Part shown: positions 3,191 to 31,384 of the stretch, piece by piece
Layout: the number at the start of each line of letters is the position of its first letter
Numbering within the stretch: position 1 is the first letter of the stretch
Sequence record: PZ357121.2
Length of the DNA stretch: 64,000 bases
Strand: one strand, 5' to 3'
Source: a phage
Notes under the pieces: model-generated
The model's database searches: none
Told to the model about the DNA's origin: nothing
What the model saw: only the letters and a program-made list of their open reading frames with translations
Position numbers and translations under genes: made by a program

Positions 3191-3460
3191 CTATCGGAGC
3201 AAACAATAAGCCTGAAACACTTTTTCCATTAAACGTTTGAACTCATGGATATCGATATAAAGCTCAGTAAGACCGGCATTATAAAGAAAATCTAAAAAGT
3301 TCTCATGTGTTTCGTTATAGTCGCCTTCGTTTAATTGAGATACATGAGTTTCCCAAAAACCAACACCTTTAACAAATGGAAAATACGTAACTTTCATAAA
3401 GTTGTCGACGTAAAATTCACCCAGCTTTTCTTCAGTTATACTGATTCGAGTTAATTTCAT
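3191..3460 (-). CDS. hypothetical protein
   Basis: ORF track 89 aa. Confidence 0.5.
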   Translation of the reverse strand: MKLTRISITEEKLGEFYVDNFMKVTYFPFVKGVGFWETHVSQLNEGDYNETHENFLDFLYNAGLTELYIDIHEFKRLMEKVFQAYCLLR

Positions 3461-9343: not shown

Positions 9344-9881
9344 ACTCATACGCCTGGAATGCATCGTATACGTCTTTTTCTGTTTTAGATTGGGCATAAT
9401 TCAACGCATCAGCGATTTGCCATTTTTCTGCATCCTCAATATGTTTTGCATAGGTGCGTTTAACATAAGGAGAAAGAACTTTATCGACATTCGCAAATGT
9501 AGTTCCACCATACTGATGCGAAGCAACTTGTGCAGTAATTTGTGCCATAATTGCAGTAGCAACACCAATAGATTTAGGCGTTTCAATTTGAGCATTGCCG
9601 AGCTTAAATCCGTTTTCAAGCATTCCTTTTAAATCTACTAAACAGCAATTAGTAAAAGGCAATGATATACTGTAATCTAAATCATGAAAATGAATTAATC
9701 CAACATTATGGGCATTTACAATATGACTTGGAAGAATACGACAAGCGATATGTTTAGAAACAATACCGGCCATTAAATCTCTTTTTGTTGGAAAGACGCG
9801 AGAATCTTTGTTGGCGTTTTCTGTATTTAATTCTTTATCTTTATTTGAAATAAAATTTAAAACATCTTTTTCTAAAGACAT
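9344..9881 (-). CDS. nrdD: anaerobic ribonucleotide reductase NrdD, exon 1
   Basis: N-terminal 179 codons of NrdD (…NENANKDSRVFPTKRDLMAGIVSKH…FTNCCLVDLKGMLENGFKLGNAQIETPKSIGVATAIMAQ…); frame runs into intron stop at 9336. Confidence 0.85.
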
Positions 9882-10693
9882 AATTCTAATTTATCCTTTT
9901 GAAATTCTTCGTCTAAATATGGGTTCCAACCCATTTTAAACCTTTTGATGAAATTATCAATTCTAAATTTCGGTAAGTTTAAATCCGCAAAAATAGATGA
10001 TTTACTTTTAAAATCTGGACTTAAATAATCATATAAAATTTCTGCGTATTTTAACCATAATATACAAGTACCAGATTTAATTGCTCTCGGAGTTTTCCAA
10101 GGTTTTACACCATACATCGGATTTCCACTTCCTTTATGCCTGATAGAAGATGAAATTCCAATTTTAATTTTAGCTTCCTTTGTATGCGAAAATCCACGAT
10201 GTGGATTTTCTTTCCAGTATTTTTTAGAAGCTTCTGATATTTTCTTTCTGGCTAAATTAGTATGATGCTTTCCATAAAATCCATGATTTTTGCCTTTATT
10301 ACGATTTCTTTTAATCATGGTTATTGATTGCTTTTCTCTAGTTTCTTTAGAAGGAGAAATACCATATGTCGTAAATTGGCCATCAGCATATGCTAAATTA
10401 AAATACTCTTTATTCCATACATCTTTTTCTATATTCTTTTGAAATTCAGCTTCAATGCTAGTTATTTGTTCATCTCCGACTAATTGAAAATATAATATCT
10501 CAACTTTCGGCGTTTCTTTCAATAAGGCTTTTTGAAATTCGGAAGATGACGAAGACGAATAATAAAATTTACCATTTTTATCAATAATATTCGTTCCGTC
10601 AAAAGTGCAATTGGTTTTACTTCCAATGTAATAATATGGCGGGGTTTTAGCATTAATTCTACTAATAAACGATAGTTTATATACTACATTCAT
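9872..10693 (-). CDS. free-standing GIY-YIG family homing endonuclease-like protein (Seg-like)
   Basis: 273 aa; N-terminal VVYKLSF...PPYYYIGSKT; NUMOD3-like repeats (KETREKQSITMIKRNRNKGKNHGFYGK, HTKEAKIKIGISSSIRHKGSGNPMYG). Confidence 0.6.
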   Translation of the reverse strand: MNVVYKLSFISRINAKTPPYYYIGSKTNCTFDGTNIIDKNGKFYYSSSSSSEFQKALLKETPKVEILYFQLVGDEQITSIEAEFQKNIEKDVWNKEYFNLAYADGQFTTYGISPSKETREKQSITMIKRNRNKGKNHGFYGKHHTNLARKKISEASKKYWKENPHRGFSHTKEAKIKIGISSSIRHKGSGNPMYGVKPWKTPRAIKSGTCILWLKYAEILYDYLSPDFKSKSSIFADLNLPKFRIDNFIKRFKMGWNPYLDEEFQKDKLELCL

Positions 10694-11163
10694 TTTAAAC
10701 TCTTTCTAAGCTGCTTTTTGAATGAAGCTATTAATTGTGTTTTAGTATCAGATTCATTATATTCAAATCCTCTTTGAAGCATCTCGGCCATCATTTCCTC
10801 TTTACCTAGTCTCGAGAACTCTTTAGTTTTGTCTGGAACAAAATTAGGATGGATATTATTATCAGAATAATCTTGTTTCAAATAAGCAAGAAGAGCTTCA
10901 AGCCATTCGAGGTAGTTGACATCACGGCCTTTAAGACCGGAACGGTTGAACTTATGCTTCATTTGACCTTCTGCTGCGTTGCACAGATTACAGAGTAACC
11001 CACGAACTCTACCGGCTTTTGGCCCGTTTAATTCGTGGTCGTGGTCAAGATGGTTACCTTGAACATCAGGGTCTAATTCACGGTGGCAAATAGGACACTT
11101 ACCGTTCTGTGCATCATAAAATTTTTGTTTTTCTTCTTTATATTTTGCGCCTGATAATAACAT
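10690..11163 (-). CDS. 49: recombination endonuclease VII gp49
   Basis: 157 aa; zinc-binding CPICH and CNLCNAAEG motifs; strong similarity to my recollection of T4 gp49. Confidence 0.9.
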   Translation of the reverse strand: MLLSGAKYKEEKQKFYDAQNGKCPICHRELDPDVQGNHLDHDHELNGPKAGRVRGLLCNLCNAAEGQMKHKFNRSGLKGRDVNYLEWLEALLAYLKQDYSDNNIHPNFVPDKTKEFSRLGKEEMMAEMLQRGFEYNESDTKTQLIASFKKQLRKSLK

Positions 11164-11198
11164 GATAAACCCTTACCTTAAATAGATAAGGGTATTTA

Positions 11199-11624
11199 TT
11201 AACTTAAACGTCTTTCTAAATATTCAATGTATTCTGCGGCTGCTTGCATCAGGTTACCTTCATAGCCGTCGTTATTTTCTTGTCCAGCTAATTTAGCTAA
11301 TGCATAAGAAATTCGTTCACCTTCGAATTCACCAAGTTTACTACCTAGCACATCCGCAATATCAGCCGAATCAATTTCTTCGAGTTCATCTATTGAATGT
11401 GATTCCCAGAAGCACCAAAGAGAAGTATCACGGTCATAGATGCAAAGTTTCTCACCAGTGTTCAACATCACTTCAATAATGCCATGGTCGCCATAACCAT
11501 CTTCGGTCGTAGTACCAATTACCTTGATGATTGTTCCTTTCTTTAATTCAGGAAACTTGACTTGTAGTTCTTCATCTTCTTTAACAATCTTGAACCATTT
11601 ACCACGTGTGTCAGAAATATTCAT
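11199..11624 (-). CDS. hypothetical protein at the position of T4 pin (identity to Pin not established)
   Basis: ORF track 187 aa; ATG at 11622-11624 (MNISDTRGKWF) with GAGGA 8 nt upstream gives 141 aa. Confidence 0.45.
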   Translation of the reverse strand: MNISDTRGKWFKIVKEDEELQVKFPELKKGTIIKVIGTTTEDGYGDHGIIEVMLNTGEKLCIYDRDTSLWCFWESHSIDELEEIDSADIADVLGSKLGEFEGERISYALAKLAGQENNDGYEGNLMQAAAEYIEYLERRLS

Positions 11625-11625
11625 A

Positions 11626-11796
11626 TCAATATCCTCTATAAAAGTTACGATGAGAACGTTTAGCTTTGCGAAGCTGACGTTTAGTAGGACGAACTGTAAA
11701 TGGTTGTCCAGAGAAAAAATTCGGATCTGTTTTAATAAGCAAATACCAATCATGCTTGCCATTTTTTAATAAACGGTACAATAATTTAACTTGCAT
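11626..11796 (-). CDS. hypothetical small basic protein
   Basis: ORF track 11626..11823 (TTG); ATG at 11794-11796 gives 56 aa. Confidence 0.3.
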   Translation of the reverse strand: MQVKLLYRLLKNGKHDWYLLIKTDPNFFSGQPFTVRPTKRQLRKAKRSHRNFYRGY

Positions 11797-11924
11797 AATA
11801 ATCTCTTCCCATTTCCATATCAATCATATCGTTTACTGTAGGTTCATCATAACACGTTTCTTCGTCGTTGTAAACTGTTTCGACGTCTGGCTCGACAGTT
11901 TCCCATCGAGCCGAATACCATGGC

Positions 11925-12281
11925 TTAACCCCGGAGTTTATTGAGCTCTTCATAATCAATCCAGGATTCTAGCCCTGACGGCAGGTCACATTCAATGTTC
12001 CACAGAAGCTCTTCAATGGCTTGCAGGCGATTATATTCTTCAACGGTAATGGTAACCATTGGTGTAACCGGTTCTGCCTTTTTAACCATCATGTCGTTCA
12101 TCAGGACGTAAAGGTCATCACGAACGACAGTGTCGTTCCAACCCCATGATTTGGCTTCGTAAGCTAATGATGAAGGGAGCACATTTAAAACTTCAATAAT
12201 AGTTGGAGCATCAGGACCAAGTTCATTGGCACAAACTTCGTATACATCTTGGAAATCTTTAAGATTTAATGAATATGTCAT
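11925..12281 (-). CDS. hypothetical acidic protein
   Basis: ORF track 118 aa. Confidence 0.5.
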   Translation of the reverse strand: MTYSLNLKDFQDVYEVCANELGPDAPTIIEVLNVLPSSLAYEAKSWGWNDTVVRDDLYVLMNDMMVKKAEPVTPMVTITVEEYNRLQAIEELLWNIECDLPSGLESWIDYEELNKLRG

Positions 12282-12300
12282 TTAAAATATTCTCGCAGTT
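12278..12300. repeat. 23-bp direct repeat, copy A (tcatttaaaatattctcgcagtt)
   Basis: identical to 12593-12615; spans stop of ORF 12300..12596 and start of ORF 11925..12281. Confidence 0.9.
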
Positions 12301-12596
12301 TATTGTTCTACACATGCACAGGAAACTTCGAAATCAGGACCGTCGTACTTCCAGTGATATTCACCAACAGGAATCCAGTCACCATGCTCGTTTTCTTCAT
12401 AGTCCTCAGGCTCAAGGCCAACGAATCGCCATTGGACACCGATGATTCTATTACCCATCATTACTCGAAATTCGCCCCATGGATTATCAATAGCATACTG
12501 AATATCGTTCTTAGCACGAGAACACATTTCTTGATATAACAAAGTTTCTAATTCGTCCTGGTCATAAGGGCCTGGGAAAGTTAAATCGATATTCAT
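12300..12596 (-). CDS. hypothetical protein, flanked by 23-bp direct repeats
   Basis: ORF track 98 aa. Confidence 0.5.
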   Translation of the reverse strand: MNIDLTFPGPYDQDELETLLYQEMCSRAKNDIQYAIDNPWGEFRVMMGNRIIGVQWRFVGLEPEDYEENEHGDWIPVGEYHWKYDGPDFEVSCACVEQ

Positions 12597-12615
12597 TTAA
12601 AATATTCTCGCAGTT
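12593..12615. repeat. 23-bp direct repeat, copy B (tcatttaaaatattctcgcagtt)
   Basis: encodes the last codons of nrdC (QLREYFK*) and overlaps the start of the next ORF. Confidence 0.9.
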
Positions 12616-12856
12616 GGTCAAATCCACCAATGTGACTTCCGTCAGGAGCAAACACTTGAGGCATCGTCAATCCAACATGTGTTTCACGTCCAAGCTTAGC
12701 CAGAAGCTCAGCAATTTTTTCTTCATCGAATACACCTTTTTCTGGCATAACATTAATGAATTCGAACGGCTGTTTCTTAACAGTCAGCAATCGTTTCGCA
12801 TTATCACAATAAATGCATTTATGAATAGTAGAGTCATACCCGTACACTTTAAACAT
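12593..12856 (-). CDS. nrdC: thioredoxin NrdC
   Basis: 87 aa from ATG at 12856 (MFKVYGYD); redox CIYC motif; ORF track start is 6 codons upstream. Confidence 0.85.
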   Translation of the reverse strand: MFKVYGYDSTIHKCIYCDNAKRLLTVKKQPFEFINVMPEKGVFDEEKIAELLAKLGRETHVGLTMPQVFAPDGSHIGGFDQLREYFK

Positions 12857-13262
12857 TATTTTTCCTTTCATCAATTAAATATGCAATGCCAAATACAATA
12901 CATGTAATAAAACCTGTGATACAGATAGAAACCAACAACACTGTACCAAAGAACCAAATCAAGTTATCTTTAGTAGTTTGTTTGATATCCATCTCACGAA
13001 TTTCTATAGCTATCGTATCACCTTTATTCAGAAGCGTATAAAACGATGGCGATACACGCCTGTCAAAAACTCGTCCTTGCTCATCTTTATAGACTGCAAT
13101 AAATTCTAATTTAGAATATTTTCCTGTAGATTGACCTGAGATTAGCTCTACTACCTCCACAGGAATTACTTTAGTTTCCATGTAAGTATTCTGGCTGTTC
13201 CAAATGAATGGAATGATGGCAAAAACTAAAGCTGCAATAAAGCAACGAAGGCTATATCTCAT
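12849..13262 (-). CDS. hypothetical membrane protein
   Basis: 137 aa; hydrophobic N- and C-terminal segments. Confidence 0.5.
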   Translation of the reverse strand: MRYSLRCFIAALVFAIIPFIWNSQNTYMETKVIPVEVVELISGQSTGKYSKLEFIAVYKDEQGRVFDRRVSPSFYTLLNKGDTIAIEIREMDIKQTTKDNLIWFFGTVLLVSICITGFITCIVFGIAYLIDERKNNV

Positions 13263-13567
13263 TATAATGTTCTCTCAAATTTGTGGAAGCATTTACGGCA
13301 TTTCAATTTCAAGTTATCAGTGGTCCAGTTAACCAGTTGGACTTGGATAGTTCCACATTCCGGACATGGATGTTTTGCTGCCGATTTGGCAGCATTTTCA
13401 CGTCGTTCAACCATTTTCATGATTTCGTTCCATGCCGGAGGAACGAACTCTTCTTCACTGTGGATTTTATCTCGCTGAACAAATTCAATCTTTGAACTAT
13501 CGTCAATAAACTTAACCAAGCCGTGATTAGTGCTCATATCAATATCCTCTAAAAGACGTAGTTTCAT
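13262..13567 (-). CDS. hypothetical zinc-ribbon protein
   Basis: 101 aa; CPEC...CRKC. Confidence 0.5.
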   Translation of the reverse strand: MKLRLLEDIDMSTNHGLVKFIDDSSKIEFVQRDKIHSEEEFVPPAWNEIMKMVERRENAAKSAAKHPCPECGTIQVQLVNWTTDNLKLKCRKCFHKFERTL

Positions 13568-14517
13568 TATAAAACCTCAATGGCATTTCGTAAACCGTCC
13601 GCTTTCGCATTCAGAGCTTTTAACGATTTAGTTTGTTCTGCAATCTGGGCTTCGACTTCTTTCAGACGAGATTTGAGATATTCGCGTTCTTCTCTTAAGT
13701 TATCAACTTTTTCTGCTTTAGGCTCTTTAATAGGCTTAGGCTTATACTCGTTAGGGTTCTTCAGCTTAATTTGAATACGAGAACTGAATAACATTGAACC
13801 GTTATCTTCGGTTTCATCATACATTTCTACCACGTCCATGATTCTTAACATCATGCGAAGTTTATAAGACAGCGAACGAATGGTTTTGTTGCGCTTATTA
13901 ATTTCTTCGGCTTTCATGGTACCGAGATTACGTGAGTAGTAATAAGGAACCTGGATATCAATTGTCAATGATGCGTTACCATTACCGGTTGGTTTGAATA
14001 CTGCAGTAACCCAATCTTTAACATGAACTTTATTTGTACGACCATCGCCGCCTGTGAATAATTTACGTGAATGTTTAAAAAGCATATTCACTTGGTTATT
14101 GAATTCACAAGCAAATTTATCGGCAAATTTAGTTTCAGGAATGGTAGATAACCAATCAGCCAAATGAGTCTTTTTAACATCGTTAATAATAGTAAATTCA
14201 ACTAAATCAGTTTTAGGTGTCACAGATTTAATAAAGCTCGGCTTCATAAAGTTTTTAATGTTATCACGAGCTACAGTAGAAGATAATAAACGAGAACGTT
14301 TGAACCATTGAAGCAGTGTCCCTAATGAATGAGAATACGCATTCTGAGTATCTTTACAGATATGATTTTCTTGGCCTGTGTATGTACCAAAATCGCGAAG
14401 AATACCACTTACTACAACTCGGTGTGGAACATCAAATCCTAATGAACCAGAAGCACGTTGGGCATGAACGTTAGCGATAAGACCTGCAAAATAATCAATG
14501 TAATGTGAACGTGTCAT
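13567..14517 (-). CDS. hypothetical 316-aa protein with C-terminal coiled coil
   Basis: ORF track; C-terminal heptad-like LREEREYLKSRLKEVEAQIAEQTKSLKALNAKADGLRNAIEVL; own promoter upstream. Confidence 0.55.
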   Translation of the reverse strand: MTRSHYIDYFAGLIANVHAQRASGSLGFDVPHRVVVSGILRDFGTYTGQENHICKDTQNAYSHSLGTLLQWFKRSRLLSSTVARDNIKNFMKPSFIKSVTPKTDLVEFTIINDVKKTHLADWLSTIPETKFADKFACEFNNQVNMLFKHSRKLFTGGDGRTNKVHVKDWVTAVFKPTGNGNASLTIDIQVPYYYSRNLGTMKAEEINKRNKTIRSLSYKLRMMLRIMDVVEMYDETEDNGSMLFSSRIQIKLKNPNEYKPKPIKEPKAEKVDNLREEREYLKSRLKEVEAQIAEQTKSLKALNAKADGLRNAIEVL

Positions 14518-14545
14518 AATATTTTCCTCTCGTTAAGATAGAAAG

Positions 14546-14575
14546 ATTATACTCCAACCGTCCTTGGTTGTAAAC
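14546..14575 (-). promoter_or_regulatory. early-type promoter with spacer hairpin (GTTTACAACCAAGGACGGTTGGAGTATAAT)
   Basis: near-identical core at 15539-15568 and 16599-16622. Confidence 0.55.
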
Positions 14576-14579
14576 TGAT

Positions 14580-15512
14580 TTATGATTTTAATGCATTCAT
14601 TGCGTTAAAAAGTTTAGAGTACTGCAACTGGAGCTTGGTAACTACTTGTTGAGCATCACGAAGCTTAGCTTGTGCTTTGTCAAGTTCAACAGACAGTTGG
14701 TCCACAGTGGCTTTGATTTGATTATAATAGTAATCTTCTGCAGGAAGAAGACCGTTAGAGATTTCCAGTTTAGACGACGGTGTGCCGTTAAACATAACAG
14801 GTTGTGCTGAAGCTGAATTAATCTTACCGATAGTCGGGGCGACAATAATTGACGCTTCGAACGTTGCATTTTCCTTTTTAAGATTTTTATAATATTCAGA
14901 GTCTTTGTGCCACCATGGCGCAGGAACCTTTTTACCAATAGATACACGAGCCTGGATAGCGATATGGCCCTTATTCTTGATAACGTCGATAATATTAAGC
15001 TCACGAGAATAAATTGCTTTAATCTGGTGAATATTATCACCTAACACTTCCAACGCTTGGTGGAATACACGAGCAACGTTATCATTCTTAGGTTTATACG
15101 TAAGAGTGAACTCGTTCTCACTGATAACCATGATTTCCAACTTATCGTAAGTATATTTCAAATGTTTCATGTTAATTGCTTGAGGACGAATACGAGAAGC
15201 AATGGCCATCAGATTGTTAAGGTTATTCCGGAACTGCTTAGCGAAATATTGTCCTTCACCACCAATACAAAAATTACGAAGTTTCTGTTTGGCTAATAAA
15301 CGGCTGAACTCACCATTTTTAATGAACTCTTTAACGGGGGTGTTAGTAACGCATTCAAATTGAGTAAACTTACGAGAAGTAATTCCATAATACGAACAGA
15401 TTTCCTCAATCTCTTCAGGAGTCTTTACAGGCATACGGATAGGATTAGGACCTGGGGTATATGCGTTCGAGGTAAATTCTTTGATAAGTTCTCTACGTGT
15501 AATAAAAGCCAT
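14580..15512 (-). CDS. hypothetical 310-aa protein with C-terminal coiled coil
   Basis: ORF track; C-terminal VDQLSVELDKAQAKLRDAQQVVTKLQLQYSKLFNAMNALKS. Confidence 0.55.
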   Translation of the reverse strand: MAFITRRELIKEFTSNAYTPGPNPIRMPVKTPEEIEEICSYYGITSRKFTQFECVTNTPVKEFIKNGEFSRLLAKQKLRNFCIGGEGQYFAKQFRNNLNNLMAIASRIRPQAINMKHLKYTYDKLEIMVISENEFTLTYKPKNDNVARVFHQALEVLGDNIHQIKAIYSRELNIIDVIKNKGHIAIQARVSIGKKVPAPWWHKDSEYYKNLKKENATFEASIIVAPTIGKINSASAQPVMFNGTPSSKLEISNGLLPAEDYYYNQIKATVDQLSVELDKAQAKLRDAQQVVTKLQLQYSKLFNAMNALKS

Positions 15513-15538
15513 TTTATATTCCTCATGTTGAAAAATTT

Positions 15539-15568
15539 ATTATACTCCAACCATCCTTGGTTGTACAT
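15539..15568 (-). promoter_or_regulatory. early-type promoter with spacer hairpin (TGTACAACCAAGGATGGTTGGAGTATAAT)
   Basis: paralogous to the element at 14546-14575. Confidence 0.55.
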
Positions 15569-16563
15569 CATTCCTTAAGAAGTTTTACTACCTGAATAAG
15601 ATTAGCTCGTTCTGTTTTATTTTTACCGTTTAAGCCTGCTAATCGTGAGATTTCATCGTCAGTCTGTTGAATAGTTACATTAAGTTCGTTAATCAAAGCT
15701 TCAAAGTATTTGATTTGCTCAGCATGTTTTGATTCAAATTTCTGAACTGGAATAACGTCTTGGTTTAGTTCATCAATAAGGTCTTTAAGAGCATCTTCTT
15801 GGTTGATATCATATTCAACTTCTTTTATTTCTTCAATGAGCTCGTCTTTATATCTAACGTCTTTTAGTCCTGGTGCTGGTCCTGAAATCTCTTCTTTAGG
15901 AGTACAAACATATCCAATACGGTATCCAATGCCGTCTCGCTTGATATCAACTTCGTCAATAAATCCACAATGTTTAAGACCAGAGCCGATTAGGTCAAAA
16001 TATCCTTGACGTCGTCCTTCAAACGTTACACGAACTACTAAGACAGTTTTACCTGCAACCTTTTGAAGCTCACATTTATAAAAGTCTGTTGAACCTGAAT
16101 AACGTGGATGAGTTTTAAAGTTCATCTGACGATCTAGGCCCATTTGTAAGCGTGCTGATACGGCCATAAAACGTGTTTGGTTCTCGTTAAGATGAGCAAC
16201 AATCCATTTCAAAGGCATTTTACACTGTTCACGACCGAACAAATCAGTATATCCTAGATTACGCAGAATGTTGTTAGAGTTAATCATCGACAGAACGTTA
16301 AGTTTATTCAGCGCGCTGAAGATTCCATCGGCCATTGATTTTCCGTAACCTTTACACGCTTTAATAAGCGCTCGCGGTAGATTAGTATAGATTTCAGACG
16401 GCATATGAAAATCAAATTTACTAGTCAGTAATTGATGAACTTGGATAGCAATTTGCTCATAATTAAGCGCTCTGCGATCATTATGGTCTTTAAACCACAC
16501 TTTAATCTGTGAAGCACATAAACCGTTAATTTCATGTTTTACCGCATCAGATGTAATGCTCAT
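15568..16563 (-). CDS. hypothetical 331-aa protein with C-terminal coiled coil
   Basis: ORF track; C-terminal QIKYFEALINELNVTIQQTDDEISRLAGLNGKNKTERANLIQVVKLLKE. Confidence 0.55.
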   Translation of the reverse strand: MSITSDAVKHEINGLCASQIKVWFKDHNDRRALNYEQIAIQVHQLLTSKFDFHMPSEIYTNLPRALIKACKGYGKSMADGIFSALNKLNVLSMINSNNILRNLGYTDLFGREQCKMPLKWIVAHLNENQTRFMAVSARLQMGLDRQMNFKTHPRYSGSTDFYKCELQKVAGKTVLVVRVTFEGRRQGYFDLIGSGLKHCGFIDEVDIKRDGIGYRIGYVCTPKEEISGPAPGLKDVRYKDELIEEIKEVEYDINQEDALKDLIDELNQDVIPVQKFESKHAEQIKYFEALINELNVTIQQTDDEISRLAGLNGKNKTERANLIQVVKLLKE

Positions 16564-31345: not shown

Positions 31346-31384
31346 AATAGGACTACTATAACATAGTCCTATCATGTTGTAAAC
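31346..31384 (-). promoter_or_regulatory. hairpin-embedded early promoter, family A copy
   Basis: plus strand aataggactactataacatagtcctatcatgttgtaaac. Confidence 0.6.

Follow-up and report, generated by a model that had tools for sequence, protein, structure and literature searches.

A 64,000-nucleotide stretch of phage DNA (sequence record PZ357121.2; hereafter the window) carries, directly downstream of the gene nrdC, a small open reading frame (ORF), ORF98, that lies between two exact copies of a 23-bp direct repeat. Comparison with related genomes shows that ORF98 and one repeat copy form a 315-bp unit that is precisely present or absent among relatives, that the copy distal to nrdC is a duplicated nrdC tail, and that breakpoints have fallen repeatedly at the 23-mer. 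On its database matches, the best of which are ST0, KMB38, PTK, phiC120 and NBG1, the window belongs to a T4-like phage of the RB69 group (Mosigvirus). The locus is best classed as an indel bounded by short direct repeats in a hyperplastic region, and what is unusual about it is that the repeat is itself a duplicated translational junction, a coding end with its ATGA overlap. We consider it probable that the repeat arose as a junction duplication through recombination in the variable region from nrdC to gene 49, and that it later served as a short island of homology. The features on which the argument turns are the following.

12593..12615, minus strand: proximal repeat copy; nrdC 3' end (QLREYFK plus TGA), overlapping the ATG of ORF98 through ATGA
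12278..12300, minus strand: distal repeat copy; non-coding relic of the nrdC tail, containing the ATG of ORF118
12278..12592, minus strand: 315-bp indel unit, one repeat copy plus the body of ORF98 (alternative limits 12301-12615)
12593..12856, minus strand: nrdC, glutaredoxin/thioredoxin of 87 amino acids (aa) (Pfam Glutaredoxin PF00462; phrog_22; synteny with T4 nrdC)
12300..12596, minus strand: ORF98, T4 gp49.3 family, the present-or-absent gene (BLASTP against T4 gp49.3; phrog_4203)
11925..12281, minus strand: ORF118, allele a, a small two-module protein (phrog_11244; C-terminal half phrog_3402)

The 23-mer is TCATTTAAAATATTCTCGCAGTT, or AACTGCGAGAATATTTTAAATGA on the minus strand, which is the coding strand of all local genes, and its two exact occurrences lie 315 bp apart from start to start. 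A first-pass annotation had placed this repeat at 12278-12300 and 12593-12615, with one copy encoding the nrdC C-terminus and stop across the next ATG and the other repeating that junction before the next gene; this is correct on the minus strand, and there are exactly two copies in the window, no further match being found in its 64 kb even when 3 mismatches were allowed (chance expectation 0). Among exact direct repeats with copies within 5 kb of each other, moreover, no other in the window is as long as the 23-mer, the longest repeat in 30 Markov-1 random sequences with the same dinucleotide transitions having a mean of 14.6 nt and a maximum of 17. Read in codons, the proximal copy is (C)AA CTG CGA GAA TAT TTT AAA TGA, the QLREYFK-stop of nrdC. 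The first base of the distal copy is the last A of the ORF98 stop codon TAA, 18 non-coding bases follow, and the copy ends in the ATGA at which ORF118 starts. The edges of the repeat are sharp, since the bases directly outside the 23 bp differ between the copies on either side.

The distribution of the unit was followed in GenBank phage records, since a search of IMG/VR for the locus by way of nrdC gave just 15 loci, and ORF98 was counted as present at ≥90% DNA identity. It occurs in 57 GenBank records, and the state in which a single copy joins nrdC to ORF118 (the '-' state) occurs in ~90, RB69, JS09, SSE1 and AV109 among them; ~40% of sequenced Mosigvirus genomes are '+' and ~60% '-'. When the contiguous nrdC|ORF118 junction of SSE1 (401 bp, fully covered by 112 GenBank phage records) was used as the query, it matched in one 401-bp piece in RB69, JS09, SSE1, F2, mogra, G2469, mar005P1, the O157 typing phages and many others, and in two pieces over 716 bp, that is 315 bp more, in SF, phiC120, Shf125875, CCU7, ChristianSchoenbein and others. 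O157 typing phage 3, mar007P3 and ST2 are further single-copy relatives that lack ORF98.

We extracted the junctions of 24 Mosigvirus loci in addition to that of the window. Two copies lie 315 bp apart in 12 of 12 '+' loci (window included), and in 13 of 13 '-' loci one copy couples nrdC through ATGA to the start of ORF118, in one or other of its two alleles (a and b), with nothing else at the site. The longer form thus has the repeat at both ends and the shorter form exactly one copy, as in an indel bounded by short direct repeats. Both states are found within single species, as defined by the International Committee on Taxonomy of Viruses (ICTV) and the taxonomy lines of the records: Mosigvirus JS09 holds ST0 ('+') together with JS09 and SSE1 ('-'), and Mosigvirus mar005p1 holds NBG1 and APCEc01 ('+') together with G2469 ('-'). 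Relatives without ORF 12300..12596 and with a single 23-mer, which the first-pass annotation had predicted, are therefore common (401 against 716 bp), and the outcome that it had named as contrary to its claim, every relative carrying the ORF between divergent flanks, was not seen.

The origin of the distal copy can be followed through its codons. In all Mosigvirus loci examined nrdC ends in the 23-mer or in a variant of it with one synonymous change (CTG/CTA). In '-' genomes the coding sequence of nrdC ends with the 22 bases that precede the ORF118 ATG, and in '+' genomes the same bases lie between ORF98 and ORF118 and are non-coding. The nrdC tail of T4, AATTGCGGGAATACTTTAAATGA, has three synonymous differences from the Mosigvirus tail, and given that the distal copy keeps the Mosigvirus and not the T4 codons, the similarity is due to descent and not to convergence. 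These codon choices show that the distal copy descends from the last 22 nt of nrdC together with the overlapping ATG, and the presence of this non-coding nrdC tail before ORF118 indicates that ORF118 once lay directly downstream of nrdC.

Individual copies have since changed. The distal copy reads ACCTG... in phiC120, SF and APCEc01, the last of these with T12A in addition, and it ends ...AAATGT in ST0; the proximal copy reads AACTA... in SF, Shf125875 and Mizar. The A-to-C change at position 2 is confined to distal copies (three '+' genomes), and since it would turn a Gln of nrdC into Pro, the distal copy is evidently no longer under coding constraint. The alleles of ORF98 fall into two clades ≤11% apart. 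The duplication is old, as shown by the independent drift of the copies in several genomes and by differences of up to 11% between alleles of ORF98; the comparison points to an old and widespread polymorphism and not to a recent event in the window genome, where perfect identity of the copies is simply one among the states that occur. No sign of concerted evolution of the two copies was seen among the compared loci.

ORF118 provides evidence that the 23-mer was used more than once. In allele b the first ~230 nt are replaced relative to allele a, and the divergence begins at the first base past the 23-mer. Presence and absence of ORF98 occur with the two alleles in four of four combinations, each represented by several independent isolates: ~43 records have ORF98 with 118a, ~69 have 118a without it, ~14 have ORF98 with 118b and ~21 have 118b without it. 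The ~21 records with 118b and no ORF98 include AV109, AV112-116, PhAPEC2, ZQ3, G2285, phi25-307 and others, and the ~14 with both include the LF82 series, Mizar and TH12, the spans being again 716 against 401 bp. The existence of all four combinations, together with divergence that starts right after the 23-mer, indicates that exchanges recurred at the 23-bp island; since the 23-mer is the sole shared sequence that lies between ORF98 and the variable part of ORF118, even a single founding duplication requires at least one further exchange or deletion there. Identity also changes along the locus, LF82-1 and SHSML-52-1 being 98.7-99.3% identical across nrdC and ORF98 and 88% identical downstream, and Mizar and LF82-1 99.7% identical downstream and 91.8% identical in ORF98. 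On the nrdC side, rare tail haplotypes are common to '+' and '-' genomes to within ~11 nt of the repeat (APCEc01 and mar007P3; the window and RB69).

The identity of ORF98 bears on how the unit is to be understood. It aligns over its full length with T4 gp49.3 (BLASTP, 38% identity over 99 aa, E 9e-24) and matches phrog_4203 (E 3.6e-45). The gene order in T4 is nrdC, 49.3, 49.2, 49.1, pin, 49 (NC_000866), and 49.3 occupies the same slot after nrdC as ORF98, with the same ATGA overlap; in the records of Shf125875 and Mizar the orthologues of ORF98 are annotated likewise. ORF98 is thus a syntenic gp49.3 homologue and not an exotic cassette. Its base composition gave no signal of foreign origin (GC 41.4% against a window mean of 37.1 ± 3.5, with 10% of segments of equal size as high or higher), no Pfam domain and no PDB relative was found for its 98 aa, and a literature search on the function of gp49.3 gave nothing useful.

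ORF118 gave no alignment with T4 gp49.2. Its two halves are separate genes, gp50.3 and gp50.1, in Salmonella phage S16, and in RB69 a 1-nt insertion (frameshift) splits it into ORF092c and ORF091c. The family of its C-terminal half, phrog_3402, bears an unconfirmed 'antitoxin' label; many T2/RB-type phages have this C-terminal module only. In the record of phage Mizar, the GAG inside the repeat is annotated as the ribosome-binding site of both ORF98 and ORF118b.

A founding event that could have produced this arrangement is one unequal, essentially illegitimate crossover between two co-infecting genomes, of which one would have had nrdC followed by a gp49.3-like ORF98 (the T4-type order) and the other nrdC followed by ORF118 (the RB69-type order). 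By this crossover the ORF98 stop codon would have been fused to the second genome at a site 22 nt short of its nrdC end, with a microhomology at the joint of at most the AA common to TAA and CAA, and the order nrdC|ORF98|nrdC-tail|ORF118 would have resulted. We propose that such a product would survive, since neither gene would have lost its native upstream sequence: ORF98 would remain translationally coupled to nrdC by ATGA, and ORF118 would retain a 22-nt leader with the GAG annotated as a ribosome-binding site. It would be equally valid to say that an ORF118 module with 22 nt of nrdC tail was joined behind a gp49.3 gene. From then on the 23-mer would have acted as an island of homology for deletion of the 315-bp unit (proximal with distal copy), for its re-insertion, or for a swap of the downstream sequence; the homologous-recombination machinery of the phage would suffice for this, with no need of a dedicated recombinase, and the outcome would be a long-standing presence/absence polymorphism of a gp49.3-family gene.

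The segment originally duplicated may have been somewhat longer than the repeat that is now visible. The motif ATATYSATT(T) stands just past the ATGA in the starts of ORF98, ORF118a and ORF118b, at offsets of 0, 1 and 3 nt.

12583-12592: motif in ORF98
12268-12277: motif in ORF118a
1505-1517 of locus L008: motif in ORF118b

ORF98 and ORF118b agree at 9/10 positions at the 3-nt offset (chance ~7e-4 per comparison, which was made post hoc), and ORF98 and ORF118a at 7/10. The match is suggestive of a duplication extending over the first few codons of the downstream gene, as is the case in a contig described below.

Several points weigh against this account. The founding crossover and both of its parents are ones that we infer from present-day genomes. 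A clade of ORF98 without the distal copy was not found, the matches examined at ≥90% identity all being two-copy, and the next-best relatives of ORF98 (Moonvirus, Dhakavirus), at ~70-75% identity, have other neighbours; the nrdC|ORF98 parent is for the first of these reasons hypothetical. The direction of present-day change, deletion or insertion, cannot be read from the sequences, nor can it be read whether '-' genomes are ancestral or secondary. The distal copy varies at 3/23 sites, which is similar to (no lower than) the 50/292 sites of the ORF98 body, and site variability gave no sign of selection on the distal copy as a recombination site or as a translation signal. Finally, some of the mixing of nrdC-side haplotypes needs just ordinary homologous crossovers at the homology boundary, with no pairing of copy with copy; because such crossovers suffice, we gave these haplotypes less weight. 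What the first-pass annotation had made of the locus, a one-gene cassette inserted or excised by recombination across a duplicated gene junction, is supported, with these limits: the precise 315-bp indel is there, but ORF98 is a resident gp49.3 homologue and not foreign, the event is old, and insertion is not to be told from excision.

Other phages show that the end of nrdC is followed by different genes. An exact scan of IMG/VR for the 23-mer returned 4 contigs, with all matches at nrdC ends apart from the known distal site in one two-copy contig. In Tequatrovirus-like IMG/VR contigs the same 23-mer ends nrdC and an unrelated gene (MMLEGTDY...) follows, and in all at least 4 different genes follow the 23-mer in different phages. 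In IMG/VR contig 2974497520 (L016; QL01-like, Dhakavirus-like) an exact 18-bp repeat, TTCAAATGATTGAATTAA, occurs at 3256-3273 and 3414-3431; it consists of the last nrdC codons and the first four codons (MIEL) of 49.3, and it brackets a 53-codon hydrophobic ORF between nrdC and 49.3 whose start (MIEL) is supplied by the first copy and whose end (FK-stop) is supplied by the second. In the related contigs L017, L018 and L020, 12-13-bp versions bracket two ORFs. Duplications of this type around small ORFs indicate that junction duplication arose independently at the nrdC locus. Moonvirus and Gelderlandvirus have yet other sets of ORFs between nrdC and gene 49.

A rival reading is that ORF98 and one repeat are a dedicated mobile cassette, excised as a mini-circle that re-integrates at the nrdC junction. 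Such a cassette would be integrase-free and integron-like, an analogue of the PeSL (promoter-early stem-loop) elements, promoter and stem-loop cassettes that flank ORFans in T4-type phages and recombine into mini-circles (PMC2839356; Comeau et al. 2014, PMC4122927), and the junction would be a reusable attachment site that also provides translation signals. The formation of mini-circles by PeSL-flanked ORFs in T4-type phages (Arbiol et al. 2010, PMC2839356), the four or more genes that follow the same 23-mer in different phages, and the L016 ORF with a start (MIEL) and stop (FK*) borrowed from the duplicated junction are all consistent with this proposal. Against it, a single type of cassette alone is found between the copies in Mosigvirus; donor sites elsewhere were not found in the window or in IMG/VR, where the 23-mer occurs just at nrdC ends and one distal site; ORF98 is a syntenic gp49.3 homologue and not a wandering ORFan; and one founding event with ordinary homologous recombination explains the data equally. 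We therefore regard a dedicated cassette as unlikely. The corresponding general proposal, that the ATGA junction at the end of nrdC can be used repeatedly, with no integrase, as a docking site for single-gene cassettes that lack a promoter, are excised as mini-circles and are transferred between co-infecting phages, seems to us similarly doubtful. If it were true, incoming DNA would duplicate the junction, which would then provide the new ORF with translational coupling, with its start and even with its stop codon, as in L016, and the locus would be a translational counterpart of PeSL cassettes.

Of the mechanisms described so far, modular shuffling by way of PeSL elements comes nearest. In both cases short repeats flank single small ORFs in hyperplastic regions of T4-like genomes and provide homology for insertion, deletion or replacement by the phage recombination system, expression signals travel with the ORF, and close relatives differ by exactly the flanked ORF. 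However, a PeSL is intergenic and made of a sigma-70-type early promoter and a terminator stem-loop, whereas the 23-mer is the coding 3' end of nrdC with an ATGA overlap, so that the signals supplied are transcriptional in the one and translational in the other. PeSLs occur at dozens of sites in a genome and the 23-mer at two, and mini-circles are known for PeSLs, whereas here sequence alone was read. A scan of 11500-16000 for sigma-70-like early promoters (TTTACW-N17-TAYWAT) found none on the minus strand overlapping either copy, and a 23-mer leaves no room for a -35/-10 pair. RNA folds of 71 nt at the two copies gave z-scores of 0.18 and 0.17 against shuffles, with no terminator-like site. 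Membership among the PeSLs was rejected, since neither promoter nor stem-loop lies in or at the repeat. An integron cassette was likewise rejected: no structured or attC-like element lies at the repeat, a search of 11000-14000 against Rfam gave no hit, and none of the ORFs of 9.8-14.5 kb is an integrase gene.

Classical deletions in T4 rII and in non-essential regions of the T4 genome have their endpoints at short direct repeats. As far as the summary in PMC2839356 goes, Mosig et al. (1998) reported T4 deletions between short repeats. The locus resembles these deletions in being an indel bounded by direct repeats, with one copy kept in the shorter allele, in a non-essential region of small ORFs. 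It differs in that those are laboratory mutants and this is a natural, ancient and balanced-looking polymorphism, and in that the 23-mer is the product of an earlier gene-junction duplication and not a chance homology. In lambdoid phages, conserved boundary 'linker' sequences lie between modules, as in the modular theory of phage evolution. There too the exchange of alternative modules takes place at a gene boundary marked by a short conserved sequence; the phage group is another one, and here the linker is a conserved end of a coding gene that has been duplicated around one gene. The nrdC-49 block of T4 itself is also comparable in gene content: there too a gp49.3-family gene overlaps the end of nrdC through ATGA, and 49.1, pin and gene 49 come further downstream; T4 has 49.2 after 49.3 and no relic of an nrdC tail, whereas the window has ORF118 preceded by the relic.

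That the two copies are alike merely as translation-initiation and coupling signals under equal constraint, by convergence or as a conserved motif with no history of recombination, is highly improbable. Both copies do end in ATGA and contain the GAG annotated as a ribosome-binding site in Mizar, and other long repeats in the window (11621/13534 and 31322/36082) are also regions with a ribosome-binding site and ATG. However, even when 3 mismatches are allowed, the 23-mer has no match at any further gene start of the window, and a GAG 10 nt from the ATG is a weak Shine-Dalgarno sequence, so that function does not call for 23/23 identity. The distal copy, although non-coding, repeats seven nrdC codons with their synonymous choices, and the identical bases before ORF118 in '-' relatives are the actual end of nrdC, which largely refutes this explanation.

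Still less credible is a target-site duplication left by a transposon-like or homing-endonuclease-driven insertion. A discrete insert between direct repeats would fit such an event, and a homing-endonuclease-like gene with a NUMOD3 motif lies 1.6 kb away at 9872..10693; most genomes of either state lack this gene, however, and those that carry it include '+' and '-' ones, and repeats of 23 bp (18 and 12-13 bp in the analogues) are too long and too variable for a target-site duplication. ORF98 has no nuclease, transposase or recombinase domain, and the search for terminal inverted repeats gave nothing but weak, AT-rich matches, none of them convincing, so that insertion of a transposon or by a homing endonuclease was rejected on both counts. 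An assembly or sequencing artefact is excluded by the recurrence of the two-copy structure with its 315-bp spacing in ~57 independently sequenced GenBank genomes and one IMG/VR contig, and by lineage-specific substitutions in either copy.

The surroundings of the locus hold further variable genes. The NUMOD3 gene (MNVVYKLSFI...), an ORF of 273 aa at 9872-10693 on the minus strand, stands between gene 49 (endonuclease VII, 10690-11163) and the downstream genes; it is also present in AV109 and two Tequatrovirus-like IMG/VR contigs, is absent from most Mosigvirus loci examined, in which gene 49 abuts nrdD, and does not track the state of ORF98. The gene pin (Lon-protease inhibitor, 11199-11624) is present in the window, SSE1, JS09, NBG1 and Mizar, and is absent in ST0, Shf125875, AV109 and phiE142, where gene 49 comes directly after a small ORF56 (loci compared: L008, L030, L037, L005).

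The window also holds other repeats. A 27-nt direct repeat, 96% identical, lies at 14546-14574 and 15539-15567 (plus strand ATTATACTCCAACC[G/A]TCCTTGGTTGTA) and coincides with the two best minus-strand matches to a sigma-70-type promoter, at 14574-14546 (TTTACA-N17-TATAAT, 11/12) and 15567-15539 (TGTACA-N17-TATAAT, 10/12), with a small palindrome, CCAAGGA[C/T]GGTTGG, in the spacer. By their sequence these repeats look like early-promoter cassettes of the PeSL type flanking genes resembling nrdC.3 and nrdC.4. A 21-nt repeat, 95% identical (18 nt exact), is found on the minus strand at 11621-11641 and 13534-13554, T[A/T]TAGAGGATATTGATATGA; it comprises a strong GAGGA ribosome-binding site and ATG, at the start of pin (MNISD...) and in or at the start of an nrdC.2-like ORF (…LEDIDM-STNHG). 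Its copies, at a distance of 1913 bp, enclose the entire nrdC.7-nrdC-ORF98-ORF118-49.1 block, and it may be another homology of the junction type or just a common ribosome-binding site. Other unusually long exact local direct repeats occur at 31347/32642 (20 nt), 31322/36082 (19 nt) and 21360/21813 (15 nt). The sequence ATAGGACTACTATAACATAG occurs twice, with its core AGGACTACTATAACA at two more sites, and TTCATAATATTCTCCTCAT, which is ATGAGGAGAATATTATGAA on the minus strand, is a junction of ribosome-binding site and ATG. These further repeats may be promoter or junction repeats in other variable regions.

The nrdC locus is a tidy natural example of a known principle, a fairly ordinary scar of gene shuffling through recombination at short homologies, and no new kind of mobile element. 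As a clean and datable case, it shows how small accessory genes are gained, lost and exchanged in T4-like phages with no dedicated recombinase: the duplicated 23-bp junction marks a module boundary, preserves the translation signals of both neighbours, and has been reused several times as a crossover point. The '+'/'-' polymorphism, often within one species, is a natural experiment for the rates of short-homology recombination and for the role of gp49.3.

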